DNA of 64,000 nt from a virus. Every line of letters starts with the position of its first letter. The stretch's first letter is position 1. This document shows, one piece after another, positions 41,408 through 63,968 of the stretch. Both the position numbers and the translations under genes were made by a program. The notes under the pieces are model-generated. The model did no database searches and was not told the DNA's origin. It worked only from the letters and a program-made list of their open reading frames with translations. Where the stretch lies: UHGV virus genome UHGV-0312702, one strand, 5' to 3'.

Positions 41408-41412
41408 TAAAT

Positions 41413-41489: not shown

Positions 41490-41519
41490 TTTAAGGACTC
41501 TCGTAAGAACCCTTAGAAG

Positions 41520-41595: not shown

Positions 41596-41600
41596 AAATT

Positions 41601-41679: not shown

Positions 41680-41681
41680 AT

Positions 41682-41756
41682 TGGCGGGGGATGTTGGAAT
41701 TGAACCAACTTCTTCGATTTCAAAGACCGAGGTTTTAACCTTGTAAACTAATCCCC
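41682..41756 (-). tRNA. tRNA-Gln (anticodon UUG)
   Basis: loop CTTTGAA, discriminator G. Confidence 0.6.
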
Positions 41757-41765
41757 TTTAAATCT

Positions 41766-42323: not shown

Positions 42324-42562
42324 TGTCTAATCCTAGTAAGGAGGTAAACATTATTATTTGTTTCTGAGTTTTCTGGTAAAGCTGTCTCAAAATTGACGCT
42401 TTTAAATTGTCTCCCACCAAAGTAATGACCAATAAATTTTTGTACTTTTATTGGGTCACATTCCCAGCCAACTTTCAAGAAAATGTGGGTATCTATAGTG
42501 GGAACCCTTACAAACTCAATACTATTGGAATTTTCATGTTCAACGACGATTAATGTTTGCAT
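42320..42562 (-). CDS. hypothetical protein
   Basis: 80 aa coupled ORF. Confidence 0.35.
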   Translation of the reverse strand: MQTLIVVEHENSNSIEFVRVPTIDTHIFLKVGWECDPIKVQKFIGHYFGGRQFKSVNFETALPENSETNNNVYLLTRIRQ

Positions 42563-42580
42563 AAATCTCTCTTATTTATC

Positions 42581-42656
42581 TGGCGCAGGATAAGGGACTT
42601 GAACCCCTATTAACAGCTTCGTAGACTGTTGCTCTATCCATTTGAACTAATCCTGC
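42581..42656 (-). tRNA. tRNA-Arg (anticodon ACG)
   Basis: acceptor GCAGGAT/ATCCTGC; loop CTACGAA. Confidence 0.65.
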
Positions 42657-42661
42657 AAAAT

Positions 42662-42739
42662 TGGTGTTCCAAGACGGATTCGAACCGTCACTAGTACAAG
42701 GTTTGAGCTTGCATCCTCTGCCAATTGGGATACTGGAAC
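42662..42739 (-). tRNA. tRNA with anticodon CAA (Leu codon UUG) but short variable loop
   Basis: loop CTCAAAC; T-arm GACGG-TTCGAAT-CCGTC; discriminator A. Confidence 0.45.
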
Positions 42740-42740
42740 A

Positions 42741-42815
42741 TGGTACTCACTAAAGGACTTGAACCTTTTTCTTCATCTTGTAAGGGTGATGTTTTACCAT
42801 ATAAACTAAGCGAGT
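42741..42815 (-). tRNA. tRNA-Val (anticodon UAC)
   Basis: loop CTTACAA. Confidence 0.55.
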
Positions 42816-42911
42816 GTGAAAGAGGTCTGAAGTTGTGCCACTAACTCAACTCCGTGGAATTTGTTACGGTCTTCAGTTGACTCAAAGTGGTCTTTCACTT
42901 GACCTCTGAAT

Positions 42912-42987
42912 TGGTGCTCCCACAAGGATTCGAACCCTGATAAGTTGCTTACAAGGCAACCGTAATAGCCAATTATACGATAGGAGC
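42912..42987 (-). tRNA. tRNA-Thr (anticodon UGU)
   Basis: stem GTTGC/GCAAC, loop CTTGTAA. Confidence 0.65.
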
Positions 42988-42994
42988 ATTAATT

Positions 42995-43069
42995 TGGAGC
43001 ATCCAGAGGGAATCGAACCCTCAACCTCAGTTTGGAAGACTGTAATTTTCCCGTTTAAACTATGGATGC
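42995..43069 (-). tRNA. tRNA-Gly (anticodon UCC)
   Basis: acceptor GCATCCA/TGGATGC; loop CTTCCAA; discriminator U. Confidence 0.6.
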
Positions 43070-43075
43070 ACTAAT

Positions 43076-43151
43076 TGGTGGAGAAGCAGGGAATTGAACC
43101 CTGTACTTAAGTTTGCAAAACTTATGTTTTAACCATGTAAACTACATCCCC
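43076..43151 (-). tRNA. tRNA-Ala (anticodon UGC)
   Basis: G3:U70 wobble in acceptor stem; loop TTTGCAA. Confidence 0.6.
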
Positions 43152-43157
43152 AATGTT

Positions 43158-43233
43158 TGGTACAGGTGGAGGGAATTGAACCCATCGTCTTACTGATTAA
43201 GAGTCAGCCGCATAACCATTTTGCTACACCTGC
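43158..43233 (-). tRNA. tRNA-Lys (anticodon CUU)
   Basis: loop CTCTTAA. Confidence 0.55.
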
Positions 43234-43240
43234 ATTAATT

Positions 43241-43316
43241 TGGTACACCTAGAGAGATTCGAACTCACACTGAGCAGATTCTAAGTCTGCTGCCTCTACC
43301 AGTTGGGCTATAGGTG
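43241..43316 (-). tRNA. tRNA with anticodon UAG (Leu codon CUA) but short variable loop
   Basis: 6-bp anticodon stem AGCAGA/TCTGCT; loop CTTAGAA; discriminator A. Confidence 0.45.
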
Positions 43317-43563
43317 CATTAAATCTTTTTAGAGAACTTCTAAGAACCTAAGCAACAAGGTTCCACAACAAGCTGTAATAACCTTAGAAGCCCTCTAAAA
43401 AGACCTAAAAAGGTCTTTGCATAGTCTTGTTTAATCCGGTGACTAGAACCTTTGGAGAGCTTGATATTATCTCTTCTCCGTGACACCTACTAGGTGCTTT
43501 ACTGTGCGTGTACGACAATACACGAGGGATACCAAAGCAACATCCGAATGAAGCTTGGCTTTA

Positions 43564-43653
43564 AATCTTATTAGGCGGTAAGTAAAGGAGTCGAACCCTC
43601 ACCGTATCTCTACAGTGGCAACTGTTTTCAAGACAGTTTGGCTACCATTAGCC
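43564..43653 (-). tRNA. tRNA-Ser (anticodon UGA), long variable arm
   Basis: acceptor GGTAGGT/ACTTACC; loop CTTGAAA; discriminator G; CC but no terminal A encoded. Confidence 0.55.
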
Positions 43654-43676
43654 GCTACCTACCCCTAATAAGACTT

Positions 43677-43759
43677 TGGCATGGGACGGAGGAGTTGAAC
43701 CCCTTTGAAACGGTTTTGGAGGCCGTTGCTCATGCCTTAGAGTCTTAACATCGTCCCAC
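43677..43759 (-). tRNA. atypical tRNA-like gene, candidate tRNA-Trp (anticodon CCA)
   Basis: acceptor GTGGGAC/GTCCCAT; loop CTCCAAA; about 7 extra nt in D-arm region. Confidence 0.4.
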
Positions 43760-43901
43760 ACTATAATTCGAAACTTACCGTATTATCTCAACACTGTAAA
43801 GCCCCTTCTCAGATTATTTACATGTTCTGGAAAACATGAGATACAGACCACCTCCCTACAGGAAGACCCGCTTAGGTCGTCTAAGTAATCTGCTAACTAA
43901 T

Positions 43902-43978
43902 TGGCACACCCTACAGGATTCGAACCTGTAACTAACGATTTAGAAGACCGTTGCTCTATCCAATTGAACTAAGGGTGC
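43902..43978 (-). tRNA. tRNA-Arg (anticodon UCU)
   Basis: acceptor GCACCCT/AGGGTGT; loop CTTCTAA. Confidence 0.65.
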
Positions 43979-44271
43979 ATTAATCTTTAAAGACTCTCTT
44001 AGAAAGCCCTTAAAGATGCCCACCTTATTAATCATACCGTGGGCTAGTACGCCAAATTCTTTGATGAGGGATTGGAAGACCTCACTGGTGTTTAGCCTAT
44101 CAAGCTACTGCCAGAAAAACATTGTCGTTTGCATTTATTTTAAATTTGCAAAATAGACGCTACGCAACGAAAACTATTCAGAATATGTACAACAAATTTC
44201 CCCACATTGTGTTACGTCTAACGCTCATGTATTGGTGTTTGAATTATACATATTATGAATTATTTTTAGTT

Positions 44272-44300
44272 ACTATAAAGTAGTCACATCTCAATGTCAA
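44272..44300 (-). promoter_or_regulatory. strong sigma70-like promoter inside tRNA cluster
   Basis: minus strand TTGACA (44295-44300), 17-nt spacer, TATAGT (44272-44277). Confidence 0.55.
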
Positions 44301-44315
44301 CAACTTTATTGAAAT

Positions 44316-44390
44316 TGGTTGTAGGTGAGGGTATCGAACCCTCTTCTAACGGTTATCAGCCGTTTGCATTACCATTTATGCTAACCCACA
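44316..44390 (-). tRNA. tRNA-Ile (anticodon GAU)
   Basis: loop CTGATAA. Confidence 0.6.
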
Positions 44391-44392
44391 AT

Positions 44393-44469
44393 TGGAGGTT
44401 CAGGTGGGAATCGAACCCACATTCATAGGGCTTATGAAACCCCTGCATTACCTTATCTGCGACTGAACC
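44393..44469 (-). tRNA. tRNA-Met (anticodon CAU)
   Basis: loop TTCATAA; G-C-rich anticodon stem. Confidence 0.55.
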
Positions 44470-44473
44470 ATAT

Positions 44474-44549
44474 TGGTAGAAGTGGAGGGATTCGAACCCA
44501 TCGCCTGTCAGATTAAAAGTCTGCCGCATCACCATTCTGCTACACTTCC
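44474..44549 (-). tRNA. tRNA-Lys (anticodon UUU)
   Basis: loop CTTTTAA. Confidence 0.55.
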
Positions 44550-44698
44550 ATTAAATTATCTTTGTAGATAAGCTACCCAGACTTGCTTAAGGTCTGTAGC
44601 GATGTGCCTTGTTGGGTTTAAATCTAGAATTTACCCTTTCACCCTTTGTGGTCGCATACTCACAGGTAAGCTTAATAGCTCACCTACAAAGATAATTA

Positions 44699-44830
44699 CC
44701 AGACCGTTGTTTATCATCTTAAGTGCTACCATTACACCAACTCGACATCTGCCGAGTGAAGGAATCGAACCTTCGCCTTTTCTTTACCGGAGAAATAGAT
44801 TGTTTAAGTTTTGCTGTAAACGGTCTTCTG
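44699..44830 (-). ncRNA. candidate Y-RNA-like ncRNA E1 with tRNA-like module
   Basis: 5' box CAGAAGACC; terminal helix AGACCGTT/AACGGTCT; internal T-arm GAAGG-TTCGATT-CCTTC, acceptor-like hairpin ACTCGGC-AGAT-GTCGAGT, D-arm-like TGGTGTAATGGTAGCAC. Confidence 0.4.
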
Positions 44831-44843
44831 TAAATTTGTTGAG

Positions 44844-44917
44844 CCAGACCAAGTTTTAAATTTTCAAAATTAAATTGGCTTGAAATTTCATACATTCTTG
44901 CTGAATTTGGTCTTCTG
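44844..44917 (-). ncRNA. candidate Y-RNA-like ncRNA E2
   Basis: same 5' box; terminal helix AGACCAA/TTGGTCT (covaries with E1/E3). Confidence 0.35.
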
Positions 44918-45004
44918 CTCCTTTAAAGAATACTCGCAAGAACTCTTTAAGGGAGGGGCTAAATAGCCCTCTCAAAACATCATTTTGAAATACTTATTAT
45001 AATT

Positions 45005-45082
45005 TGGCGGTTACGAAGGGATTTGAACCCTCATCATCTCCCGTGACAGGGGAGTATTTTAACCAGATTAAACTACATAACC
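45005..45082 (-). tRNA. tRNA-Asp (anticodon GUC)
   Basis: stem CTCCC/GGGAG, loop CTGTCAC, discriminator G. Confidence 0.65.
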
Positions 45083-45087
45083 TTTAT

Positions 45088-45175
45088 TGGTGTGCCGTGT
45101 AGGAGTCGAACCTACCGAGTCTCAATGACAAGGGATTTACAGTCCCCACCGCTACCATCTACGGGATAACGACAC
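45088..45175 (-). tRNA. tRNA-Tyr (anticodon GUA), long variable arm
   Basis: 88 nt; loop CTGTAAA. Confidence 0.6.
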
Positions 45176-45184
45176 ATTTTAATT

Positions 45185-45261
45185 TGGCGGTTAGTCAGGG
45201 ATTCGAACCCTGTGCCATTCGCTTAACAGGCGACCGCACATACCTTATGTGCTTCCTAACC
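45185..45261 (-). tRNA. tRNA-Asn (anticodon GUU)
   Basis: loop CTGTTAA. Confidence 0.6.
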
Positions 45262-45272
45262 TTAATACATTG

Positions 45273-45331
45273 CCAGACCGTGTTTTTCTTTTATCCGCAA
45301 AAAGTAGTTTGTTGCTGAATACGGTCTTCTG
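45273..45331 (-). ncRNA. candidate Y-RNA-like ncRNA E3
   Basis: 5' box; terminal helix AGACCGT/ACGGTCT; begins about 6 nt after a tRNA 3' end. Confidence 0.35.
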
Positions 45332-45337
45332 CAAAAT

Positions 45338-45413
45338 TGGAGGCGGGTGCAGGAGTCGAACCTGCCGATACCATGCTAATGAGACATGTGAGACGCCCTT
45401 TCTCTATACCCGC
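45338..45413 (-). tRNA. tRNA-Met (anticodon CAU), second copy
   Basis: loop CTCATTA; possible 1:72 mismatch. Confidence 0.55.
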
Positions 45414-45425
45414 AATTCTTAATGA

Positions 45426-45498
45426 CCAGACCAAATCTCTTCTTTGTCCGATTGAATGTCAGATGAATAAGATTAAATTTGCTGTAATTGGTCTTCTG
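45426..45498 (-). ncRNA. candidate Y-RNA-like ncRNA E4
   Basis: 5' box; terminal helix AGACCAA/TTGGTCT. Confidence 0.35.
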
Positions 45499-45505
45499 TC
45501 AAAAC

Positions 45506-45580
45506 TGGTGTCGTAGACAGGATTCGAACCTGCGAGCAACTGATTGAAGGTCAGGTGGCTAACCATTTGCCTTCTACGAC
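45506..45580 (-). tRNA. tRNA-Glu (anticodon UUC)
   Basis: acceptor GTCGTAG/CTACGAC; loop CCTTCAA. Confidence 0.6.
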
Positions 45581-45581
45581 A

Positions 45582-45938
45582 TTAAACCATTGTAATTCCA
45601 CTATGAACCTCTCTGTGGCAATTAGCGCATAGCAAAACACATTTATCAAGTTCTTTTTTAACCTTTTCCCAAGATGCACCCATAAGTTTTGATGGTGTAT
45701 TCTCTTTTTCGTTTGGGTTAAGGTGATGCCATTCTAAAGCATTTTTACATTTATTATAGCCACAAATTATGCAACTATCGCCATAAAGCTTATATGCTTT
45801 CTCCCTATTGGCATCCTCTCTAAGTTTTGTCCTTAATGCACAACATTTTAGACAATTTACTCTATTACCGGCGTTACCATTCTTATGAATGCTATGTTCA
45901 GTTAAACCATGAACTGGACATTCTTTTAAAAATCTCAT
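45582..45938 (-). CDS. HNH endonuclease
   Basis: EWHHLNP and CANCHREVH motifs plus Cys pairs; start at ATG 45938 with RBS AAGGGG; track start 46016 runs through tRNA-Pro. Confidence 0.7.
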   Translation of the reverse strand: MRFLKECPVHGLTEHSIHKNGNAGNRVNCLKCCALRTKLREDANREKAYKLYGDSCIICGYNKCKNALEWHHLNPNEKENTPSKLMGASWEKVKKELDKCVLLCANCHREVHSGITMV

Positions 45939-45955
45939 AGTAACCCCTTTAAATT

Positions 45956-46032
45956 TGGTCTCTGTTGGAGGACTTGAACCTCCGGCCTTACCGCCCCAAA
46001 CGGAACGCTCTACCAAGCTGAGCTAAACAGAG
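45956..46032 (-). tRNA. tRNA-Pro (anticodon UGG)
   Basis: acceptor CTCTGTT/AACAGAG; loop TTTGGGG. Confidence 0.6.
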
Positions 46033-46197: not shown

Positions 46198-47613
46198 TTA
46201 CCAGATGTAACGGTCAATCATTACTGCTTTGAGCATTACGCTGATTGGGTCAAACTTCTCACCACCAAGCAGGGCTTTTAAAGTGGCTGGGGAGAACCCT
46301 GATACCATTGCTACACCGTTATCCTTAACAGACACTTCGCAAGTACCACTACGGTTTGCTAAGTACCAGAATACCAGTTGTGGCATTTCGTATCCAGCTT
46401 TTTTGTACTTACTACGAATTGCTTCAAAGTTTGTACGACCATTTGCACCATCAACCTGATTGAACTCCATATCAGAGAAGATGATAAGCTTACTTGGCAT
46501 ATCTTTCTGAGTCAAGTTGTTTCTCTTGCCTGTCTCAAGAATACGGTCAAAAGCTGCTTGTAAGTTGGTTGAACCATATTCAACATGACGCATTACCTGA
46601 CGGTGACGGTTTCGTAAATCACCACTCAGTTCGATGAAATGAGGGTTTGTTGAATAAACCATTAACTCGTTCTTAAAGCAACCTGTATTGCGTTCTGCTA
46701 CATACAAGGCAAGTGATACACCAATATCGAGGGCAGTAATTGAGCCAAGATTCACCCAAGACATTGAGCTTGAAACATCAGTCATACACAAGATGTTTTC
46801 ACCTTCTGCCATCCAGTTTGGTAGTGCTTTCCACTGCTCATTAGCAACATCTGCATTACCATACTTGATAGATTTAATCACATCGTATGGATAAACAGCA
46901 CCAGCATTAATCTTAGTCTCACCCTTTGATAAGGACTCAACGTAAGCTTTGTAGCGTTCTCCATCTTTACGGTTAAATAATTTTTGGTAACGTGCAGCAG
47001 CAAGTGAAGGAATCTTACTGTAGTCAATCTTACCAAACTCATTAGCAGAGATTTTTTGTTCAACTGTATCAGATAGTGCAGACAGCAGTGTGCGGTACTC
47101 TTTCTCGCTCAAGTTTGCAAACTTACAGAAACGTTTTACAAACTGTTTGTGACGTGGTTTTACTCGTGGTAACCACTTAGCTGCTAAACCTGCTGTTGCA
47201 GGGTCTAGTAAAGCTGCTTCTAAATGTTTGAAGGCATCTGTCTCAAAACGAGTACCTACAAAGATTTTGAAGTCATCAAAGCGACCAAGCTCTGCAATCT
47301 TATCCATAATGCGAAGAACCTGTGTAGGCTCTAAAACTTTATCTTCAATCGCTTGAAGTAAAACAGTTCGGAAAGCCTTACGCTCACCCATACCTTCTCG
47401 TACATCTCGCATATGCAGTAAAATACGAACTGCAACATCAACATCCTCATGCAAAGCTTTGTAGAACAAGTCTGGTAAGATTTCTACATTGCTACGGCTA
47501 GAACCAGCAGCTTTGTAAAAGTCTACAAGAGCAGACATTGATGAAGTATGGTTTACAGCACCATTTTCAGTTCGACCTGCATGAAGGTGCGCATGTTTAA
47601 ATAATTCGCTCAT
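46198..47613 (-). CDS. Ro60/Rsr-like protein (TROVE-like N-terminus + vWA domain)
   Basis: MIDAS DVSSSM plus LGSI, GSTN...IIFSDMEF segments resembling Ro60 vWA as recalled from memory. Confidence 0.55.
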   Translation of the reverse strand: MSELFKHAHLHAGRTENGAVNHTSSMSALVDFYKAAGSSRSNVEILPDLFYKALHEDVDVAVRILLHMRDVREGMGERKAFRTVLLQAIEDKVLEPTQVLRIMDKIAELGRFDDFKIFVGTRFETDAFKHLEAALLDPATAGLAAKWLPRVKPRHKQFVKRFCKFANLSEKEYRTLLSALSDTVEQKISANEFGKIDYSKIPSLAAARYQKLFNRKDGERYKAYVESLSKGETKINAGAVYPYDVIKSIKYGNADVANEQWKALPNWMAEGENILCMTDVSSSMSWVNLGSITALDIGVSLALYVAERNTGCFKNELMVYSTNPHFIELSGDLRNRHRQVMRHVEYGSTNLQAAFDRILETGKRNNLTQKDMPSKLIIFSDMEFNQVDGANGRTNFEAIRSKYKKAGYEMPQLVFWYLANRSGTCEVSVKDNGVAMVSGFSPATLKALLGGEKFDPISVMLKAVMIDRYIW

Positions 47614-54972: not shown

Positions 54973-55521
54973 ATGGAAAAAGATAACTTAAAAGATGTTG
55001 AAGGTAACTATCTAGTCCTTGATTGGAGTGATGCTCAAGAAGCACTCTCTGAAGAAAGTCTTGACAGATTAAAACAGATTGTTTTTGCAGTACGGGGTTA
55101 CAGAGAAGTTAAAAATGGTAAAGACCCACTTGAAGGAGTCTTTGTAGAGAAATCTTATCCGTTCTATGAAGACACTTTGCAGAAAGTCAAGATGTACTTT
55201 AGACAGAAGAACCGTAAAGTGGTCACTATGGTATCTCTTGGTGGACAGAGTATGTCTGTGATGGAAGATATCAACCCTAAGAGACCGAGTAAAGGTGTTT
55301 GTATAAAAACCACAGGTCATGAAGAGTACATCTCAGTGGATGATTTTAGTTCATTCTGTAGTGGTTCTTGTGTCTTTAATGGTTTTCACTATGATATCCG
55401 AGTGTACCCAATCAAGGGAGATGATATCATGATGCAGGTATTCGATAATAACAATGGATTTACTCATTTTTATCAGACAACCAAGTCATCGCTGAAGACA
55501 GTTCTGGAAACACTGATTTAA
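54973..55521 (+). CDS. hypothetical protein
   Basis: start set at internal ATG 54973 to avoid overlap. Confidence 0.4.
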   Translation: MEKDNLKDVEGNYLVLDWSDAQEALSEESLDRLKQIVFAVRGYREVKNGKDPLEGVFVEKSYPFYEDTLQKVKMYFRQKNRKVVTMVSLGGQSMSVMEDINPKRPSKGVCIKTTGHEEYISVDDFSSFCSGSCVFNGFHYDIRVYPIKGDDIMMQVFDNNNGFTHFYQTTKSSLKTVLETLI

Positions 55522-55532
55522 AATATCTTAAG

Positions 55533-55560
55533 AGCCTCCTTAATCGGGGGCTTTTTAATT
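55533..55560 (+). terminator. intrinsic terminator ending the plus-strand block
   Basis: AGCCTCC-ttaatc-GGGGGCT followed by TTTTTAATTTTT. Confidence 0.65.
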
Positions 55561-57115
55561 TTTATAAAATTTTATCGGTTGTCCCAACCTCTGGGTCACC
55601 ATCATATGTGAACAAAATATCTACCCTCTTAATAACCTTCTTAATCTTACTCTCTATATAGTTATATAGTACTATATAGTATCTTAGTACCTATCTAGTG
55701 GTTTTAATAGCCCCTCTGTATAGCCCTTCTAAACACTCTTCTAACAAGCCTTTTTAACAACCTATACAATCACCTTAACCACCTCTCTATACACTCTTAG
55801 AAGCTCCTATACACATCTTAATCTCTATGTCAGCTATGATACCCTCTATAGGTGTTCACTAGGTATTACTAAGCCTCTATATAGACTGTTTTAACAAACT
55901 TAACAGGAATATCTTCACAGACCTTATCTCACAAGGTCTAACACGGTACTAACAAGGTATCTTATAAGCCTGTTTCTACCTGTATTTTTAAAAGACTGTC
56001 TAGGTAATTATTCAGAATTTTAAAATTTTTATAAAATAGGACTATCAAGTCATTTTTTAGGGTCTTTGAAGGAACTGAAAAATATCTGTCTAGGATGTAT
56101 ATCTGCTTGGTAGCCCTTAACATCCCTGTAACATCCCCTTTGCAGAATTTTAAAATATCCTTAACAATCTCTTAACAGCTCTTACATCTTCTTAACATCT
56201 CTTCAGAGGTCTTAACAGATTCTTAACAGAACTAACAAGGATGTAACAAGTTCTTAACAGTCGATACATAGGCTTTACAGAGTCTTAACAGATGACTAAC
56301 AAGAGCTAACAAGTTAATTTTTAAGAGTTATTTTGTTAAGATAATTAACAAGTTTCTAACAAGTGTTTAATCTTTTTAACAAGCTATTAACATGGTCACT
56401 ACTCTTTTCTTATCGTTCCCTCTACCTTCTTAGTGATTCTCTAAACATACCTCTTAAAAGCTCTCTATAGCTACTTATAAGCCCTTTTAAGCCTCTTCCT
56501 AGTAACTACACCCCAACTATACAGACACCTATTTATAGAGCTTTACAGGAGCTTTTAAGGCTATGCCAAAGGTTCTTACAAGTCTTTTACGTGGTCTTAA
56601 CAGAGATTTAACAAGGGGCTAACAAGTTGCTAACAAGTGCCTTAAAAGCATAACTATGTAGGGATTGTTAAGAAATTGTTAAGAAAATGTTAAGGGGGCT
56701 AGCATTTACGTAACTTTATAGCCTCTTTTACGTAACTTTTAAGCTACTTCAGAGTAACTTTATAGCCCCTATAACATACTTTTTAGTGACTATCAAGGGG
56801 ATTGTTTAACTATTCACAAGATACTAACGAGATAATAAAGCTCATAACCTTATAAGATTCTTTTAAGCCTCTATAAAGCCCTGTAAAGAGCTTTTAAGGG
56901 TGAGTTAATGCAATCCCTTAAGTTAGATTGATAAGGCTGTTATAGCGCTTTATAGAGCGTTTAAACGGTTGCCCTTCCCTTTCGGGTTATGGGCTTATAT
57001 TTAAGTTGATTTGATAAGGGGCTATAGAGTAAGCTATAGAGTTATTACTTTTAAGGTATGAGATAGATTCTATCGAATCAGTGGGAAAGATTCTGGGAAG
57101 GGATTGGATAGACGT
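55561..57115. repeat. 1.6 kb noncoding iteron-rich region
   Basis: no ORF of 60 aa or more; dense short repeats (TCTTAACAG, CTAACAAG, TTGTTAAG inverted copies, TATAGCC/TTAAGCC families), densest approx 56150-56340 and 56590-56700. Confidence 0.6.
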
Positions 57116-57170
57116 AAAAAAGCCCCTATAAGAAGGAGCTTTTCAGGTATCTGGGGCTATTTAGCCCCGT
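57115..57170 (-). terminator. terminator hairpins after the small-gene array
   Basis: GGGGCT-AAAT-AGCCCC and downstream GGGGCT + TTTTTT on minus strand. Confidence 0.5.
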
Positions 57171-57178
57171 TGCGTCGA

Positions 57179-57427
57179 TTAGTTGTAACCTTGTTTGCTG
57201 TAGTATAGGGAGACGATTTTTTCTCCCCAGTAGTGGTAGTGATATTCCTCGTTTATGGCTTCTTTTACAGCATCCTTCCAAAAGTCATCGGTAGGGTTAT
57301 AATCTGGTAGCACCTGCTGAATCAGCATTTTGATAAGGTCAAAGGTGTTATCTGTGCCACCGATATCGAATTTTGCATCAAGTTCGTGGCAGCCATAAGC
57401 ATTAACAGTTACGCGGATAGTTGACAT
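57179..57427 (-). CDS. hypothetical small protein
   Basis: 82 aa behind conserved cassette. Confidence 0.5.
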   Translation of the reverse strand: MSTIRVTVNAYGCHELDAKFDIGGTDNTFDLIKMLIQQVLPDYNPTDDFWKDAVKEAINEEYHYHYWGEKIVSLYYSKQGYN

Positions 57428-57494
57428 AATTTAGATTCTCCAGTTTAGGACTTTATTTAGTGGGAAGGTTAATCCCTCCCCGTTGATTAGTAAT
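57428..57494 (-). promoter_or_regulatory. conserved upstream cassette, type B
   Basis: GGGGAGGG...CCCC hairpin, CACTAAAT box, GGAGA RBS. Confidence 0.55.
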
Positions 57495-57758
57495 TTACTG
57501 CATGTTGGCGTATGTTGCAAGCCTTTTTTCGTTGTATTTTGTCAGAATCTCACAAGATAAAACATCATATTTTGTAACCGCTTTGCCTTTGTCGAGGTCA
57601 AAGAATCCGAACGCTTTACCGTCTTTGAATCCGACAACCTCGTAAGACTCTTTGATGATTTCACCATTGAACAAATCACTTTCGATACGGTGGAATAGTG
57701 CTACATCCTCTTTGTCGGATGCAATTTGTAAAAGTGTGGTCAGTTCGACGTGTTCCAT
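57495..57758 (-). CDS. hypothetical small protein
   Basis: 87 aa behind cassette. Confidence 0.5.
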   Translation of the reverse strand: MEHVELTTLLQIASDKEDVALFHRIESDLFNGEIIKESYEVVGFKDGKAFGFFDLDKGKAVTKYDVLSCEILTKYNEKRLATYANMQ

Positions 57759-57819
57759 TTTGAATCTCCAGTTTAGGATTTTATTTAGTGGGGGAGGTCA
57801 TCCCCCGTTGATTGACAAT
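57759..57819 (-). promoter_or_regulatory. conserved upstream cassette, type B
   Basis: GGGGGATGACCTCCCCC hairpin + CACTAAAT + GGAGAT. Confidence 0.55.
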
Positions 57820-58350
57820 TTACAGATTTTTGATTGTCTCGTCAATATCTTTTTCAATATCTTTTAAAGTTTTTTCTAAGTTCTTGATATTAAACGTTAA
57901 ACCTTCACCGAGAGTCTTAGAATAACCGCTAGGACGTAAACCATATAGCTCGATTTCTTCCACTTCAAAGAGGTTAACAGTCCAACCGCCTACGCCATAG
58001 GCTGAAGCAACAGTATTTGCAGGTGCGTTGTAAAACTTGTTCAAATTATGAATAGAACGTTCATAAGCCATTTTATAGCTATTTAAAAGGTTTTTAACGT
58101 GGCTGTGAACGTTTTTACACTCATCTAAGTAAAGACCTAAAAACATCGGGAGAAGTTCCGCGACAGCTTGCATAAAGTGAGAGACTACCACGGTTGCAAC
58201 ATTACGACGATGAACGTAATAAGCCCCGTTTCCTGATTTGGTAATGGTTGCAAAGTGTACCCCATTACAACGGAATTCATAGGTATCTTTAACAGGCTTA
58301 GACATTACATTATTTGAACGAATATAGTTGATAGCTTTGAACTTGTTCAT
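57820..58350 (-). CDS. hypothetical protein
   Basis: 176 aa behind cassette. Confidence 0.5.
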   Translation of the reverse strand: MNKFKAINYIRSNNVMSKPVKDTYEFRCNGVHFATITKSGNGAYYVHRRNVATVVVSHFMQAVAELLPMFLGLYLDECKNVHSHVKNLLNSYKMAYERSIHNLNKFYNAPANTVASAYGVGGWTVNLFEVEEIELYGLRPSGYSKTLGEGLTFNIKNLEKTLKDIEKDIDETIKNL

Positions 58351-58430
58351 TTTAGAATCTCCTAGTTTAAGGACTTTATTTAGTGGGGAAGGTCATTCCC
58401 TCCCCGTTGATTAGTAATTTACTTGTTTTG
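58351..58430 (-). promoter_or_regulatory. conserved upstream cassette, type B
   Basis: GGGGAGGGAATGACCTTCCCC hairpin + CACTAAATAAAG + GGAGAT. Confidence 0.55.
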
Positions 58431-58573
58431 ATAGTTGATTGCAAGCAATTTTTTAAGTTTATCTATAAAGAATCTTTTAAGTAAATCCCTTTTAGATAAA
58501 CCCCCTCGAACAAATGTACTATTGTCAAGGGGTATCGTCAAGTAATTTTTTAAAGTTTTTTGTAAGTTATTGA

Positions 58574-58915
58574 TTAACTGATGAATATTTTTTCAGGTTT
58601 TACATAGCTGATACGCTGGCTTTTTAGCAGGTCATCCCAGATTAGCGCGGCAATATGAGAATAACCGGATTCACGTAAGAGCTTCATTGCTTTACTTCTC
58701 GTTTCAAAACGGCTTGCGTAGTACTCGCTATTCAGTGTCGTTTTATTCCCTTCGTTATCTGTATGGATGATTTGCATCACTTGAAAGGGGCTGACATCCT
58801 CGCCTTTGTTCCACTGCTCAAAGTATTTTAGGCACTGCATAGGTGACATCTTATCACTGACTTGAGTTGACCAAGATGAATCTTCTTTATTGGTAATTAC
58901 AGTTACATAAGCCAT
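58574..58915 (-). CDS. hypothetical protein
   Basis: start set at ATG after cassette RBS; track start 58981 reads through the cassette. Confidence 0.5.
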   Translation of the reverse strand: MAYVTVITNKEDSSWSTQVSDKMSPMQCLKYFEQWNKGEDVSPFQVMQIIHTDNEGNKTTLNSEYYASRFETRSKAMKLLRESGYSHIAALIWDDLLKSQRISYVKPEKIFIS

Positions 58916-58990
58916 TTTAGAATCTCCTAGTTTAAGGACTTTATTTAGTAGGGAGGTTATTGCCTCCCCGTTGATTGGCAATTTACAGAC
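58916..58990 (-). promoter_or_regulatory. conserved upstream cassette, type B
   Basis: GGGGAGGCAATAACCTCCC hairpin + CTAAATAAAG + GGAGAT. Confidence 0.55.
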
Positions 58991-59005
58991 TTTTATCAGG
59001 CTTGT

Positions 59006-59239
59006 CTAGTCTTTTTCAATGATAATTTCATATTGACCATCGACACTGTCAAAATAGACGCCGTCTTCATCTTCTGTCTTAAAGTAGCATTGAATATCAT
59101 CACTGGCGGGATAGTCTTGTCTTGCTATCTGGCAAACTTGAATAGCATTTTCTTTACTCCCTGTAAACTCCTCAAGCCCTTTAAAATCACATGAATGACC
59201 ATTACAAATAGAAAGGATAAGATAAACGGTTGTAAGCAT
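59006..59239 (-). CDS. small secreted Cys-containing protein
   Basis: hydrophobic N-terminus MLTTVYLILSICNG; no canonical cassette upstream. Confidence 0.45.
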   Translation of the reverse strand: MLTTVYLILSICNGHSCDFKGLEEFTGSKENAIQVCQIARQDYPASDDIQCYFKTEDEDGVYFDSVDGQYEIIIEKD

Positions 59240-59302
59240 GATTTAAGCCCTTTAAATGGCCCTGTATGGGCCTTAAGTTGGAAGTTGGTGTCTTTGTACT
59301 GA

Positions 59303-59866
59303 TTAACCTAAAAAGTCTTTTAAATTGCGCTCTGTGATGTTTGCCGTGATTTTATCCAGCAAGTCACAAAACACGGAACTATCACCGCTATTCTGTACAA
59401 TTTTCGCCATACTTAACAAATCATCGTCAACATAGCCTAAATTGCGGTTAGTTGCATCTGGTACAAAGAAAGGTGCATACATCGCACTAAATTTCGTCGA
59501 GTGAAGGCCAATAATCCAATTTTTATCAAAGTGTCCGGTAAAGCTGGCGATATCGCTCATGTTGTCACAAGAATAATCATCCTCTAGCTCTTCCTCTGGG
59601 ATATCCATCTCAATGACAATTACGTCCTGCGTTTCCATTTGGAAAGCTGCCGTAATAAGCCCAGATTCTAAAGCGTTTTGAATGCAGCGTTCACGAATGT
59701 AAGAATCTTCCTCATCTTCCAGACATTCCGTTTTGATAATCTTGTTCATTGGGTAAACGTAGAAACAATCATCCATGTAGGAGCAGTTCCAGATTCCTTC
59801 TGGCTTGTCACCACCATTCAGCAAGTTTACAAAGTTTTTGAGGGTAGTGCCGTGATAGCATTTCAT
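59303..59866 (-). CDS. hypothetical protein, possible H-Y-E type ADP-ribosyltransferase
   Basis: N-terminal CYHGT motif followed by YVY; weak motif-level evidence only. Confidence 0.3.
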   Translation of the reverse strand: MKCYHGTTLKNFVNLLNGGDKPEGIWNCSYMDDCFYVYPMNKIIKTECLEDEEDSYIRERCIQNALESGLITAAFQMETQDVIVIEMDIPEEELEDDYSCDNMSDIASFTGHFDKNWIIGLHSTKFSAMYAPFFVPDATNRNLGYVDDDLLSMAKIVQNSGDSSVFCDLLDKITANITERNLKDFLG

Positions 59867-59951
59867 TTTTGAATCTCCAGTTTAGGATTTAGTGGTAAAG
59901 CTCTTTATCTGGGGCTTAAGATATCAACTTTTAAGCCCCCTGTAAAGTACT
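59867..59951 (-). promoter_or_regulatory. conserved upstream cassette, type A
   Basis: GGGGCTTAA-aagttgatatc-TTAAGCCCC hairpin + CCACTAAATCCTAAACTGGAGAT. Confidence 0.55.
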
Positions 59952-60200
59952 TTATTTAACTTTCTTTGAGAAAATTAGTTTAACTGCAACCGTAGGAATC
60001 TCGTCAGCGCTTGTAACCAGCATTACTTTTTGGGTAACCAACTTATAACCGTTCTTTGCAGCATATGCGGTAAAACGGTTAACATTGTAACTATAAGTTT
60101 TTGGTGTGCTATCTGGCATGTGGTAAAGAAAAGGTTTACCCAAATTTTCTTCTTGTGTCAACAGTCGGCAGGTATCAGGGATATTGAAATAGTTCATCAT
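59952..60200 (-). CDS. hypothetical small protein
   Basis: 82 aa behind cassette. Confidence 0.5.
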   Translation of the reverse strand: MMNYFNIPDTCRLLTQEENLGKPFLYHMPDSTPKTYSYNVNRFTAYAAKNGYKLVTQKVMLVTSADEIPTVAVKLIFSKKVK

Positions 60201-60292
60201 TTTTGAATCTCCAGTTTAGGATTTAGTGGTAAAGCTCTTTATCTGGGGCTTAAGATATCAACTTTTAAGCCCCCTGTAAAGTACTTTATCAG
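60201..60292 (-). promoter_or_regulatory. conserved upstream cassette, type A
   Basis: identical to 59867-59951 element. Confidence 0.55.
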
Positions 60293-60490
60293 TTATTTTT
60301 TGACAACTTTTAAAACTGCAAGATAACCTAAGCAATAAGAATCACCGAAGAGAGTTCTGCCCATGAAAGAATCCTCTTTGATATCCTTTGCAGTGACAGT
60401 TTTTTCTACGCCGTGGGAAAGGACTACATCACCGACTTTGATGTCTTTGATGTGTGTTGTTTCAATGGTTAAGCCGTTAATAATAGCCAT
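60293..60490 (-). CDS. hypothetical small protein
   Basis: 65 aa behind cassette. Confidence 0.5.
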   Translation of the reverse strand: MAIINGLTIETTHIKDIKVGDVVLSHGVEKTVTAKDIKEDSFMGRTLFGDSYCLGYLAVLKVVKK

Positions 60491-60593
60491 TTTAAAATCT
60501 CCTAGTTTAAGGACTTTATTTAGTGGGGAAGGTCATTCCCTCCCCGTTGATGTGTAATTTAGCCTATCTAAAAATCAGTGTCAATAATTTTTT
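60491..60593 (-). promoter_or_regulatory. conserved upstream cassette, type B, with extension
   Basis: type B hairpin plus GATGTGTAATTTAGCCTATCTAAAAATCAGTGTCAA block repeated at 61542-61630. Confidence 0.55.
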
Positions 60594-60998
60594 TTAGAGT
60601 TCTGCGTAAATTGCATCACAGATATTACGGAAGTCATGATTTGACAAATTACGTTGTAACCAAGTGGCGAAGAAATCAGCGATTGCAAAATTAGCATCAT
60701 ACTCGACAGATAGCCACACTTTAACAGCAAATCGGAACATTTTCAAGTCTAACTCTTTATTCATTACCTTAGATTTGCCTAACATGTCGGACATCTCATA
60801 TTGTGCACCGTCTAGCGTGATACCTGCTGCAACGTCAGACAATGAGTTTTTTACGTTTTCAACGTCTAAGATAACACTTTGAATCTTCCCGATAATGTTG
60901 TGCAATGTTTCATCCGGTGCTGATGATGTAATAACATTAATCCGGTTAACGGTCAAACGTGCTTTTAAAATTGATAACTCACGGTTATTAATAGCCAT
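60594..60998 (-). CDS. hypothetical protein
   Basis: 134 aa behind cassette. Confidence 0.5.
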   Translation of the reverse strand: MAINNRELSILKARLTVNRINVITSSAPDETLHNIIGKIQSVILDVENVKNSLSDVAAGITLDGAQYEMSDMLGKSKVMNKELDLKMFRFAVKVWLSVEYDANFAIADFFATWLQRNLSNHDFRNICDAIYAEL

Positions 60999-61084
60999 TT
61001 TTTAGTTCTCCAATTTAGGATTTAGTGGTAAAGCTCTTTATCTGGGGCTTACTTTATCGAACTATAAGCCCCTTGTAAAGTACT
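60999..61084 (-). promoter_or_regulatory. conserved upstream cassette, type A variant
   Basis: stem GGGGCTTA/TAAGCCCC kept, loop sequence differs. Confidence 0.5.
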
Positions 61085-61357
61085 TTATACTAAATGCAGC
61101 TTTTTACCTTTTACTATGATGTAACTAGATGCGCTATTGCTGCATACATCTTGGTAAATTCTGCGCAAACGCCCTTCATAGTGTACTTTCCAACTGGTTG
61201 GAATCTTTTTCCCGTATCCTGTAGCAGTTTTTTGGAGTCCTGCAACTTGCCAATCCAAAATGTGCTGTTCAGCTTGTAAATCCTCGAAGTGCATTACACC
61301 GTTCACATAGTGGCGTAGGGTTACGTTTAAAGTGCGACCGTTGTTAGTAGTGTACAT
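61085..61357 (-). CDS. hypothetical protein
   Basis: start set at ATG 61357 (MYTTNNGR) behind RBS AAGAG. Confidence 0.45.
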   Translation of the reverse strand: MYTTNNGRTLNVTLRHYVNGVMHFEDLQAEQHILDWQVAGLQKTATGYGKKIPTSWKVHYEGRLRRIYQDVCSNSASSYIIVKGKKLHLV

Positions 61358-61382
61358 TTTAAAAGCTCTTAGTTTAAGGGTT

Positions 61383-61541
61383 TTATTTTGACAGTTCACT
61401 AATTAAGACATCAAAGATTATATCATTATCTGCTACAGTTGCAACACCAGTGATATAATCAATTTCTAGGATAACAACAACTTTCGTACATAAACCGTCA
61501 TCTATATCATTCCAGACAACTTTATCACCTGCACAAAACAT
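61383..61541 (-). CDS. small hypothetical protein (52 aa)
   Basis: ORF below track cutoff, preceded by canonical cassette and GGAGAT RBS. Confidence 0.45.
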   Translation of the reverse strand: MFCAGDKVVWNDIDDGLCTKVVVILEIDYITGVATVADNDIIFDVLISELSK

Positions 61542-61630
61542 TTTCAGAATCTCCAGTTTAGGACTTTATTTAGTGGGGAAGGTCATTCCCTCCCCGTTGA
61601 TGTGTAATTTAGCCTATCTAAAAATCAGTG
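61542..61630 (-). promoter_or_regulatory. conserved upstream cassette, type B, with extension
   Basis: near-identical to 60491-60593. Confidence 0.55.
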
Positions 61631-61963
61631 TCAAACACTTTGTTTTCGTTTGCTCAATTCTTGAACAATTACAGCGTAGTAGTCTTTTAAGTCACTGATA
61701 TTTAAAGCATTTATTAGTGAATTATAATCATCGACTAACTGAAAATCATCTTTGAAGATGTCACTTATCTGATAGGTGTTAGCTTTGTATCTGAAGCTCA
61801 TTTCTAACCGTTTTATTTGTTCATCACTTAAACGCTCCAGAAAACTCATTACAAGGCTATTATTGACCTGTTGCGTGATTGCCTTACTTGCCAGATTGTA
61901 GGCGCTGTACGCCTTATATAGCGCCATAATAGCAATGATTGCAGTGACTCCCATCATTAACAT
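61631..61963 (-). CDS. small membrane protein
   Basis: N-terminal TM MLMMGVTAIIAIMALY; coupled to upstream gene, no cassette. Confidence 0.5.
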   Translation of the reverse strand: MLMMGVTAIIAIMALYKAYSAYNLASKAITQQVNNSLVMSFLERLSDEQIKRLEMSFRYKANTYQISDIFKDDFQLVDDYNSLINALNISDLKDYYAVIVQELSKRKQSV

Positions 61964-62253
61964 GGTGTTACCTCTTTACGTGACACTTTGCCATTTACAG
62001 ATATCTCATAAGATTCTAATAAATCACTTTTAGACTTTACTGGACTTTTAAAAGTATCATCATAAATATTAACTTGCAATACAGGTTTTTTATACTCCCT
62101 GCAACTGTTCCATAAACAAATCACTACACGACGGCCTTTTATTTTGCCGTGTAACCATTCCATAACATCATGACTATTCCTTGATGTTTCAATGAAATCA
62201 ATTTTATTAAGTAACTTGCTTAGATTTTCACGAACTTTATTTGATAATTTCAT
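61957..62253 (-). CDS. hypothetical small protein
   Basis: 98 aa behind cassette. Confidence 0.5.
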   Translation of the reverse strand: MKLSNKVRENLSKLLNKIDFIETSRNSHDVMEWLHGKIKGRRVVICLWNSCREYKKPVLQVNIYDDTFKSPVKSKSDLLESYEISVNGKVSRKEVTPC

Positions 62254-62346
62254 TTTAGAATCTCCTAGTTTAAGGGCTTTATTTTGATAAATCTTTTTAT
62301 CTGGGGCTATCCTACCAGCTTGATAACCCCGTGTAAAGAAATCTAT
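62254..62346 (-). promoter_or_regulatory. conserved upstream cassette, type A variant
   Basis: GGGGTTATCAAGCTGGTAGGATAGCCCC hairpin variant + RBS. Confidence 0.5.
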
Positions 62347-62859
62347 TTAGTTCTTAAAGATATTCATCACTGAGTCTTTCAACGATTCCAAACGTTCTAA
62401 TACTTCAGTTTCTGCGTCTGAATTGCTCACCTCTTCTTTTAGTCTATCCTCTAAATCATCACCGTCACGATAGCACCAATCGAAAGCATAACCAAGATAA
62501 AAACTTTCTAAAACCGTGTTACCGTTTGCATCCACAACTTTCGCGGCAAGGTTGTACTCTGAAGCCTCTAAATCTCTTTCTAGTTCTTTCTGTAAGCTGG
62601 TGTAAGCCTCTTTTGATGGATTTTCCCGACCTTGTTTTGCATAGTCACTAGAAAGCTGTTTAAGGCTGTAATGTAAAGGGATTGCATATTTAAACTCATT
62701 ATGCTGATGGTTAGGATTTTTAATAGTTACACCGCCTTGATGGTCATCTGTAAACTGCCAATTATCAAGGTTATGGCTTGCTTCAAAGCAATTAACAGCC
62801 TCATAGATGATAGAAAATTTTTCTTTTACAACTTCAAAGGTAGCGTCTACAGTTTTCAT
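62347..62859 (-). CDS. hypothetical protein
   Basis: 170 aa behind cassette. Confidence 0.5.
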   Translation of the reverse strand: MKTVDATFEVVKEKFSIIYEAVNCFEASHNLDNWQFTDDHQGGVTIKNPNHQHNEFKYAIPLHYSLKQLSSDYAKQGRENPSKEAYTSLQKELERDLEASEYNLAAKVVDANGNTVLESFYLGYAFDWCYRDGDDLEDRLKEEVSNSDAETEVLERLESLKDSVMNIFKN

Positions 62860-62947
62860 TTTTGAATCTCCAGTTTAGGATTTAGTGGTAAAGCTCTTTA
62901 TCTGGGGCTTAAGATATCAACTTTTAAGCCCCCTGTAAAGTACTTTA
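62860..62947 (-). promoter_or_regulatory. conserved upstream cassette, type A
   Basis: identical to 59867-59951 element. Confidence 0.55.
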
Positions 62948-63205
62948 TCAGATTAAATTGCCAGTTAATGATAAGTGCATTTTATAGCCTTTTTTGGTAA
63001 AAACGTTCACTTTACCTAGTGTTTTTACACCTTTAAAAAGGTTGTTTGAACTGCGTTTTAAAGTTAACTGCTTATCAACCTTCACGCCCCACCTTACAGC
63101 AGATTGTTTCCCGTTGTCAATCACTTTACCGCATAACTTTTTAGCCATGTTGCGAGCGTCATCACGAGTCTTTGCAGTAATTACAACGTTTTTGATAATA
63201 GCCAT
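62948..63205 (-). CDS. hypothetical small basic protein
   Basis: start set at ATG 63205 (MAIIKN) behind cassette RBS. Confidence 0.45.
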   Translation of the reverse strand: MAIIKNVVITAKTRDDARNMAKKLCGKVIDNGKQSAVRWGVKVDKQLTLKRSSNNLFKGVKTLGKVNVFTKKGYKMHLSLTGNLI

Positions 63206-63291
63206 TTTTAAGTTCTCCAATTTAGGATTGAGTGGTAAAGTTCTTTATCTGGGGCTTACTTTATCGAACTATAAGCCCCTTGTAAAGTACT
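63206..63291 (-). promoter_or_regulatory. conserved upstream cassette, type A variant
   Basis: same variant as 60999-61084. Confidence 0.5.
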
Positions 63292-63672
63292 TTATTTAAT
63301 TTTGAAAATTGTTACATAACCATCACTACCGATTATTTGAGACACTCCAGCTTTTTCTACTTGATAGCCCATATTTTCAAGATGATAAACAGCATCATCA
63401 TAACCATATGCGCCGCCTTGATAACGTCTCTTATCACATCTTACTAATACCTTTCCACGTCCAGCAAGTGCATTCAGTACAGCTTTTTCACTTGAGAGTG
63501 TGCCATCTAACATGGTTGCCGTGTAATGGTTGATTCTATTCCCGTTAATATCATACTTAAAATTGAATGCGTGAACAACAATCAATTTGCCGTTAAATTT
63601 TTCATCAAGTGACTTCTCCAGTGCGTTGCGGAAGTTGTCTTTGTTGATGAATTTTGGTGCACGATAAGCCAT
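63292..63672 (-). CDS. hypothetical protein
   Basis: 126 aa behind cassette. Confidence 0.5.
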   Translation of the reverse strand: MAYRAPKFINKDNFRNALEKSLDEKFNGKLIVVHAFNFKYDINGNRINHYTATMLDGTLSSEKAVLNALAGRGKVLVRCDKRRYQGGAYGYDDAVYHLENMGYQVEKAGVSQIIGSDGYVTIFKIK

Positions 63673-63761
63673 TTTGAATCTCCTAGTTTAAGGGTTAATT
63701 TAGTAAAGCTCTTTATCTGGGGCTTAAGATATCAGCTTTTAAGCCCCCTGTAAAGTACTTT
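63673..63761 (-). promoter_or_regulatory. conserved upstream cassette, type A
   Basis: GGGGCTTAAAAGCTGATATCTTAAGCCCC hairpin + RBS. Confidence 0.55.
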
Positions 63762-63968
63762 TTATTTATCGTAGTAGTAAATTGCTGTCTGTCTTGTAAA
63801 CTTCTTAGTGTTTATTGTAAGGTAGCAATTAGAATTAATAGCCGTTTCTACATAGTTGCAATAGTCAGCTTCTGAAATTCTACGCCATGCGCCGCACACT
63901 TGCATGTAAAAACGTTTTACATTTGTATTAACGTTGGTTGTAACCATCAATTCACGACTGTAAAGCAT
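63762..63968 (-). CDS. hypothetical small protein
   Basis: 68 aa behind cassette; next cassette truncated by window end. Confidence 0.45.
   Translation of the reverse strand: MLYSRELMVTTNVNTNVKRFYMQVCGAWRRISEADYCNYVETAINSNCYLTINTKKFTRQTAIYYYDK

Follow-up and report, generated by a model that had tools for sequence, protein, structure and literature searches.

An 11-bp-phased, iteron-rich region that holds the direct terminal repeat of a Felix O1-type phage: a probable genome packaging region

What is the function of a long phage genome region that contains dense arrays of short repeats instead of genes? We address this question for positions 55561-57115 (1555 bp) of a 64,000-nt stretch of UHGV virus genome UHGV-0312702 (hereafter, the window, to which all coordinates refer). 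An initial annotation of this iteron-rich region had offered three options, namely, a replication origin, a partition site, and a packaging or terminal region. Comparison with related phages favors the last of these options over the other two: the genome ends of the relatives map to two sites within the region, 56108/56109 and 56699/56700. We estimate at roughly 60% the probability that this is the terminal, or concatemer-junction (packaging), region of a Felix O1-type phage, in which the iterons probably serve as a phased protein scaffold that positions the terminase cuts.

The region together with its flanks matches about 260 phage records in GenBank, nearly all of them Felixounavirus, at 85-93% identity; the matches to the region in the sister genera Suspvirus and Mooglevirus show 75-79% identity. 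These approximately 260 records are likewise gene-free or unannotated across the homologous region. On sequence similarity, the phage in the window is a Felixounavirus, that is, a Felix O1-like myovirus. The ends of its genome were placed by homology to the records of the relatives, which were mapped base by base, with the following result:

56109-56699, no strand: direct terminal repeat (DTR) of 591 bp, present as a single, probably collapsed copy, placed by mapping of the relatives' record ends and by their annotations
56096-56115, plus strand: left DTR boundary, TGTATATCTGCTT/GGTAGCC, cut at 56108/56109, identity 0.95-0.98 in the alignment
56699/56700: right DTR boundary, GGGGGC/TAGC, cut placed by homologous record ends

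The sources of this mapping are diverse. The HP1 record has a 570-bp repeat at both ends, and both copies map to 56109-56699. The 618-bp segment annotated as 'DTR' in Salmonella phage UAB_69 maps to 56107-56701, and the records of H12, NBEco004 and NBEco005 were opened at 56699/56700; the authors of H12 determined the direct terminal repeats by PhageTerm. In Hafnia phage SPARTY (Kolesnikvirus), an exact 439-bp repeat, the two copies of which are 100% identical, is found at both record ends; it starts right after CTGCTT and stops with AAAGTGGC, and these sequences are homologues of the two boundaries in the window. The right boundary of SPARTY agreed with the position predicted beforehand from the sequence of phiEa104. 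Among the Erwinia phages, the records of MM7, vEam_W_28 and others start no more than 1-2 nt from the homologous left boundary, and 30 Ounavirinae contigs of IMG/VR contain the left-boundary motif. Records from three genera, independent of one another, terminate at the two conserved boundary sequences, both of which are present in the window, where the 591-bp segment is found in one copy. The GenBank record of UAB_Phi87 is not opened at its ends, and that of UAB_69, from the same laboratory, was used for the mapping; the record ends of BPS15Q2, which lie 14-67 bp away from the boundary, were considered imprecise.

Several phages of this group have been characterized in this respect. For UAB_Phi87, a 608-bp DTR was identified by Bal31 sensitivity and sequencing run-off, a heat-treatment restriction test for cohesive ends was negative, and the terminases of the Felix O1 group form their own DTR cluster in the published tree (PMC4837284). 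Going by that tree, the large terminase encoded in the window would belong to the DTR-associated clade. PhageTerm analysis yielded DTRs of 581 bp for Pr103Blw (PMC8303462) and 613 bp for Ro111lw (PMC6454146), and indicated short DTRs in the Erwinia Kolesnikviruses (PMC11984208). In the original Felix O1 paper, short terminal repeats were inferred from the comparison of the 86,155 bp sequenced with an estimate of about 86.5 kb obtained by pulsed-field gel electrophoresis. The DTRs of UAB_Phi87, Ro111lw, Pr103Blw, UAB_69, HP1 and SPARTY consist of DNA homologous to the region (75-93% identity), with the same boundaries, the same length class and the same position between the same convergent gene blocks, and do not differ from it in any essential way. 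Phages with short exact DTRs form concatemers that contain one repeat copy per junction and are cut by the terminase at specific sites; the second copy is synthesised in connection with packaging, and short-read assemblers commonly place the collapsed DTR mid-contig (PMC10438801). By analogy, the single copy in the window would be the usual outcome for a collapsed assembly or a concatemer junction. Judging from the mapped relatives, fixed, non-permuted virion ends at 56109 and 56699 are very probable. A headful pac site was considered and rejected: the relatives have fixed ends and exact repeats, not permuted ends.

The repeats that fill the region are much commoner there than in the rest of the window. 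Exact counts are 6 for TCTTAACAG, 7 for CTTAACAG, 8 for CTAACAAG, 3 for the inverted TTGTTAAG, 3 for TATAGCC and 2 for TTAAGCC; for TCTTAACAG, CTAACAAG and TTGTTAAG, these numbers equal or exceed the copy numbers given in the initial annotation. The enrichment of the motifs over the rest of the window is 40-260-fold: given the expectation from the rest of the window, TAACAAG occurs 12 times compared to 0.18 expected, CTAACAAG 8 times compared to 0.03, and CTTAACAG 7 times compared to 0.15. The generalised core YTWACAR is found 19 times in the kilobase 56-57, versus about 1.4 per kb elsewhere (Poisson P ~1e-15). The TATAGCC and TTAAGCC families, which had also been proposed, are weak when counted as exact words but genuine when treated as degenerate units of 11 or 22 bp. 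What had been missed is an 11-bp period that extends across the whole 1.55 kb. The base autocorrelation at lag 11 is 0.40 in the region versus 0.265 +/- 0.013 in 1555-bp windows elsewhere in the window and is raised in all three sub-segments; in a scan of the 64 kb with 600-bp windows, the six top lag-11 values all fall inside the region. The repeats are arranged as follows:

55561-56108, no strand: left flank, unique non-coding DNA expected to adjoin the right-end DTR copy in virion DNA
55654-55699, no strand: TATAG-type tandem repeat, unit CTATATAGTA, detected with Tandem Repeats Finder (TRF); the repeat_region of phage mio maps to 55654-55699
56118-56392, plus strand: iteron array A, about 22 units with the core T(T/A)ACA (TCTTAACAG or CTAACAAG)
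56576-56635, plus strand: iteron array B, five units at 11-bp spacing
56664-56699, minus strand: inverted iteron array C, three copies of ATTGTTAAGAA (units 56664-56696) that abut the right DTR boundary; TRF period 11, 95% matches
56700-57115, no strand: right flank, unique non-coding DNA expected to adjoin the left-end DTR copy in virion DNA; lag-11 autocorrelation 0.38
56705-56767, in the right flank: 22-bp repeats TTTACGTAACTTTATAGCCNCT, TRF period 22

In array A, which is interrupted by an AT-rich spacer (56312-56345), the cores are spaced by 11 bp in 13 cases, the other spacings being 9-10, 20-22 and 33 bp. The unit families of the flanks differ from the DTR cores, yet the period is still 11 or 22 bp. 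The left flank, in which we detected no conserved open reading frame (ORF) between 55561 and 56108, consists of degenerate units of about 11-12 bp of the CTCTATAG, CTTAACA and CTAACAAG types along with the TATAG repeats (autocorrelation of 0.36-0.37 at lags 11-12), and is closed by an AT-rich stretch at ~55995-56055; the right flank carries the 22-bp unit TTTACGTAACTTTATAGCC. Two of the tandem repeats are annotated as repeat_region in the records of mio, momo and other phages.

The iterons face inward from both ends of the DTR in the window as well as in HP1 and SPARTY, and the latter two phages have the same layout as the window, with plus-strand iterons over the left 60% of the repeat and a minus-strand cluster in its last 35-90 bp. 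Going inward, the virion ends read alike, 5'-GGTAGCCCTTAACA and 5'-GCCCCCTTAACA, and the unique bases just outside the cuts are similar in the inverted orientation, TGCTT/ and TGCTA/. Folding of the DNA around the two boundaries showed no structure beyond that of shuffled sequences (z = 0.08 and 0.78), so the sequence gives no indication that hairpins prime a reaction at the cut sites.

Selection on this architecture was assessed in an alignment of 22 non-redundant homologous regions, which were drawn from the fetched records and the 30 IMG/VR contigs found by the left-boundary word TGTATATCTGCTTRGTRGCC. The mean column identity to the window is 0.88 in the left flank, 0.85 in the DTR and 0.78 in the right flank; the values are 0.95 and 0.92 for the two boundaries, as against 0.62-0.65 for the small genes next to the region. 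The repeats noted in the initial annotation are conserved in the relatives: within the DTR, the TAACA cores show an identity of 0.93, as opposed to 0.82 at other positions (Mann-Whitney P = 2e-10; none of 5000 random placements reached the observed value), and most individual cores are intact in 91-100% of the 22 relatives. Insertions and deletions respect the period as well. Among the gap runs of at least 5 nt, 30 of 65 are exact multiples of 11 (11, 22, 33, 44, 55, 88, 99, 110 and 143 are all represented), versus the 9% expected (P ~7e-15, the runs being not fully independent). The inverted unit ATTGTTAAGAA at the right boundary is present in 2, 3, 4 or 5 copies depending on the phage, in exact 11-bp steps and with the boundary invariant (the variants at the aligned position include L018, L022 and L035), so that the differences in DTR length among isolates (570-618 bp) come in part from the unit copy number. 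In Erwinia phage phiEa104, the homologous gene-free region of 1.43 kb can be aligned only over 127 bp at the left boundary; it nevertheless has 14 copies of TCTTAAC, a lag-11 autocorrelation of 0.36, and a flank motif of its own, CTTAGAAG, in 9 copies. The motif, the phase and the boundary sequences are maintained while the remaining DNA turns over. The broader statement that non-coding DNA is here more conserved than coding DNA was considered and rejected: the region exceeds the neighboring small accessory genes only, not the major capsid gene. We also observed a 24-bp insertion, TTGATTCGGTAGAATCTACCTCAT, which contains a palindrome, immediately outside the left boundary (left of 56094) in some of the relatives (L016 Moogle, L028 and L041).

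The genomic context of the region is that described in the initial annotation. The region lies between convergent gene blocks, with the plus-strand genes stopping at 55521 and the minus-strand genes at 57179; transcription of both outermost blocks runs outward into the region and stops at its edges, where intrinsic terminators are found. There is no ORF of 60 aa or more, the longest ones within 55561-57115 being 53 aa (55962-56123, minus strand) and 35 aa. The window contains the Felix O1-type gene set, as expected. The features relevant here are:

38360-39976, minus strand: large terminase gene (phrog_979 match, E = 1e-233)
in the window: portal, protease and major capsid genes, part of the Felix O1-type gene set
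in the window: T7-like replisome, with a primase/helicase and a PolA-type polymerase
55530-55555, plus strand: intrinsic terminator of the plus-strand block, found by consensus scan (stem of 10 pairs and then a T-run); ASO1A has an annotated terminator at the corresponding place
~57116-57141, minus strand: intrinsic terminator of the minus-strand block, read from the sequence; here, too, the homologous position in ASO1A carries an annotated terminator
56363-56470, plus strand: homologous position of a small ORF called in the relatives' records

A mechanism can be proposed on the basis of these landmarks. The virion DNA would start at 56109 and end at 56699 one genome length later, so that the 591-bp segment would be present at both virion ends; in replicating concatemers, as in the assembly, the repeat would be present once, flanked by approximately 550 bp (left) and 415 bp (right) of non-coding DNA. 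The phased cores, lined up along one side of the helix, would be bound cooperatively by a phage protein that recognises their sequence, most likely the terminase component responsible for DNA recognition, and this binding would position the large terminase at the two invariant boundaries. These boundaries resemble each other when inverted, TGCTT/GGTAGCCCTTAACA versus TGCTA/GCCCCCTTAACA on the other strand, and one enzyme could accordingly nick opposite strands 591 nt apart, leaving 5' overhangs that span the repeat on both products. Fill-in of the overhangs by DNA polymerase would then provide a full DTR copy for each packaged genome. A staggered-nick scheme of this type is the classical model proposed for T7-type ends. 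Here, we infer both the binder of the iterons and the polarity of the nicks; the role of the iterons as a scaffold for terminase positioning is put forward tentatively, at slightly less than even odds, and the polarity of the nicks is a speculation from a short shared word.

The closest architectural counterpart that we identified is found at the ends of T7 (NC_001604). The terminal repeat of T7 is 160 bp long, and the first 400 bp of the genome contain 11 copies of CCTAAAG, 3 of them inside the repeat and 8 just after it, with a 13-bp period (lag-13 autocorrelation of 0.54); further copies precede the right-end repeat. These arrays are called SRL and SRR in the T7 genome description. In both cases, a 7-8-bp core is repeated about every helical turn inside a short exact repeat and in the unique DNA on both sides of it. 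Both would also share the presence of one repeat copy in the concatemer, the second copy being synthesised during packaging (PMC10438801). The resemblance is architectural and is best regarded as an analogy: the sequences are not homologous, the motif is different, the period is 13 bp in T7 versus 11 bp here, the repeat is 160 bp versus 591 bp, and the non-coding block here is about three times larger. Moreover, the left flank of T7 has early promoters that read inward, whereas here the flanking blocks read outward into the region and terminate. Reiterated terminase recognition elements are also represented by the R sites of lambda cosB, the hexamers of P1 pac, and the pacL/pacR boxes of SPP1, where multiple short phased binding elements flank the cleavage site. 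These phages use cos or headful packaging and have other end structures, and the elements are far more numerous here, with about 30 cores and about 140 units.

Several observations weigh against the packaging interpretation or parts of it. A small terminase subunit is not recognisable beside the large one, as in PHROG and Pfam scans the four small upstream proteins match families of unknown function only, and neither these nor the ten proteins flanking the region yielded a candidate for a small terminase or a DNA-binding protein; the gene for the large subunit is located 16 kb from the region, and we know of no protein that binds the iterons. The positions of the ends come from homology, and they vary by up to 2 nt between sources (56107 or 56109; 56699 or 56701). 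The word shared by the cut sites, TGCTW/G, is short, and it is weaker in Kolesnikvirus; a reading as symmetric nicks is therefore suggestive at most. The families of flank motifs differ by genus (CTTAGAAG in phiEa104 versus TTTATAGCC here), and in the flanks phasing or DNA shape could matter more than a single binding protein. The region is also less conserved than a core gene, that for the major capsid protein (95-98% within the genus and 88-90% to the sister genera, versus 85-93% and 75-79% for the region), while being more conserved than the adjacent small accessory genes. Finally, the combination of iterons and AT-rich spacers also fits an origin.

Replication initiation at, or also at, these arrays is the first alternative to consider, and we deem it unlikely, a weaker explanation than packaging. 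An initiator or the T7-type primase-helicase would load at the phased repeats beside the AT-rich spacers, and the DTR would overlap the origin. The direct repeats do adjoin AT-rich stretches (56312-56345 and ~55995-56055), in the manner of iteron origins such as lambda ori and plasmid oriV, where direct repeats in one orientation adjoin AT-rich DNA; the T7-like replisome of the phage (primase/helicase and PolA-type polymerase) fits as well, and T7 has secondary origins near its ends. However, searches of the region for DnaA boxes and the IHF consensus gave no matches, and no initiator-like gene is located nearby, the ten flanking proteins matching only PHROG families of unknown function, with no Pfam domain above the cut-off. 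The units are 11 bp long with a 7-8-bp core, in contrast to the 17-22-bp iterons of lambda and plasmid origins. GC skew, which was also checked, tracks gene orientation, that is, the direction of transcription, and is uninformative. The arrays coincide with the mapped genome termini, and an origin leaves unexplained the presence of inverted arrays exactly at the mapped cut sites. Thus, nothing specific supports the origin option of the initial annotation.

About equally unlikely is that the arrays bind an architectural or end-binding protein, of the phage or of the host, which would protect the ends from RecBCD, pair them after ejection, or organise, within the capsid or the tail channel, the DNA that is packaged first or ejected last. 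Compatible with such a role are the similarity of the two virion ends when read inward (5'-GGTAGCCCTTAACA and 5'-GCCCCCTTAACA), the inward-facing iterons at both ends in three genera, and the phasing that reaches 400-550 bp past the repeat on both sides; furthermore, Bas63, which belongs to the genus, may have no RecBCD inhibitor, as suggested by the authors of PhageMaP. The same symmetry, however, is needed by a terminase that cuts both boundaries, no candidate protein was identified, and nothing in the experimental work on this phage group points to proteins bound at the ends. A function at the ends need not exclude one in packaging. In a speculative and rather improbable extension, the whole 1.55-kb block would be a phased nucleoprotein scaffold of about 140 helical-turn units along which a phage protein polymerises, with the inward iterons making the two ends equivalent, in a telomere-like manner, and serving both packaging initiation and the protection or pairing of the ends after ejection.

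Highly improbable is the possibility that the repeats are merely satellite DNA prone to slippage, a by-product that builds up at the genome ends, where it interrupts no genes, with only the boundaries being functional. The shifts of copy number in 11-bp steps among close relatives are what slippage would give, and the flank motifs differ between genera. Nevertheless, the cores are significantly better conserved than the spacers, with most sites intact in 91-100% of the relatives, and the TCTTAAC core persists in the Erwinia phages in DNA that is otherwise unalignable; the identity across the region (0.85-0.88) also exceeds the 0.62-0.65 in the adjacent small genes.

Least probable of all, and by our estimate very remote, is the expression of the region, be it as small proteins or, in the right flank, as a structured non-coding RNA. 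Two to four 'hypothetical proteins' of 25-53 aa are annotated at homologous positions in PP952733, OL656108, MK482688-90 and OQ850288-90, and the records of H12, UAB_69 and the LMP phages carry small hypothetical ORFs in the region; the careful annotations of ASO1A and AYO145A leave this stretch empty except for one terminator per edge. The longest of these ORFs, of 53 aa, is broken in most relatives, shows no excess of third-position substitutions (115/86/81 by codon position), and spans the physical end of the genome; the small-ORF calls in the region are almost certainly spurious. Promoter-like sites are at chance level (9 sigma-70 sites versus 6.9 +/- 3.2 in shuffled sequences), and an 11-bp motif period is a feature of DNA, neither of coding sequence nor of RNA. 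The one segment for which a structured RNA is possible is located in the right flank:

56857-56967, plus strand: long imperfect inverted repeat, followed by a small GC hairpin at 56971-56994; RNA fold of -50.1 kcal/mol, z = -4.3

The pairing of this hairpin is kept in 13 relatives, with few compensatory changes (3 pairs have changes on both sides), and in one lineage the small GC hairpin is swapped for a different one (GGCCATCCCC...GGGGTTATTGGC). An Rfam scan of 55300-57400 at permissive thresholds gave no family match, only two sub-threshold, chance-level hits (MIR390, 25.8 versus 77 bits, and Phe_leader, 24.8 versus 55 bits). The segment 56857-56994 could be a cruciform, a structured RNA or the terminator of a short unannotated transcript. 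The PhageMaP knockout study of Bas63 targeted only genes in that phage. As for a partition site, nothing supports this option, and the phage is virulent.

Some observations outside the region deserve mention. In the intergenic spacers between small minus-strand genes at 57420-63780, there are repeated cassettes of 60-110 bp (for example, 58345-58455, 60485-60595 and 61535-61645, and, in a second family, 59863-59972, 60197-60306 and 62856-62965). On the minus strand, each cassette contains a TTGACA-type promoter-like box and the GC hairpin GGGGAGGGAATGACCTTCCCC, with a ribosome-binding site immediately ahead of the following start codon. The cassettes match the 39- and 57-bp direct repeats of the Felix O1 paper and are similar to the repeated early-promoter elements known from the related PAK_P1-like phages. 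Two further features are located between the large terminase gene and the region:

40406-46032, minus strand: tRNA cluster of 25 genes, with interspersed small ORFs
46198-47613: gene for an RNA-binding (Ro-like) protein; the tRNA cluster sits between the large terminase gene and this gene

The PhageMaP preprint speculates that some of the 'tRNAs' of Bas63 are possible Y-RNA-like partners of the Ro-like protein. Among the database records, some that are assigned to unrelated hosts contain highly similar Felixounavirus DNA, for example, that of 'Campylobacter phage A132' (MG065664), which is 96% identical over the major capsid gene, and that of a 'Staphylococcus' phage; the annotation notes of ASO1A cite SA1. 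Host misattribution or contamination of deposits seems likely in such cases.

The identity of this region as the DTR-bearing terminal region is already known for the genus. In the literature on Felix O1-like phages that we searched, the existence and length of the DTR are described; the 11-bp iteron organisation, the inverted arrays at the boundaries and the 1.55-kb extent of the conserved non-coding DNA are not, although such absence of further description is no proof. The 11-bp-phased, inward-facing iteron architecture thus appears to be undescribed, and is a variation on the T7 pattern. For annotators, the implication is that the genome very probably runs from 56109 to 56699 one genome length later and that the assembly would thus be missing one copy of the 591-bp repeat. 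The recognition, cutting and duplication of short exact terminal repeats are only partly understood, and the Felix O1 group offers unusually clear landmarks: invariant boundaries that are alike when inverted, inward-facing arrays, and strict 11-bp quantisation of insertions and deletions. From these landmarks follow direct predictions that mutagenesis and binding assays could address cheaply, in phages of wide use in the typing and biocontrol of Salmonella and E. coli. If a scaffold with telomere-like ends is indeed present, these phages would provide a tractable model of how exact terminal repeats are recognised and duplicated.

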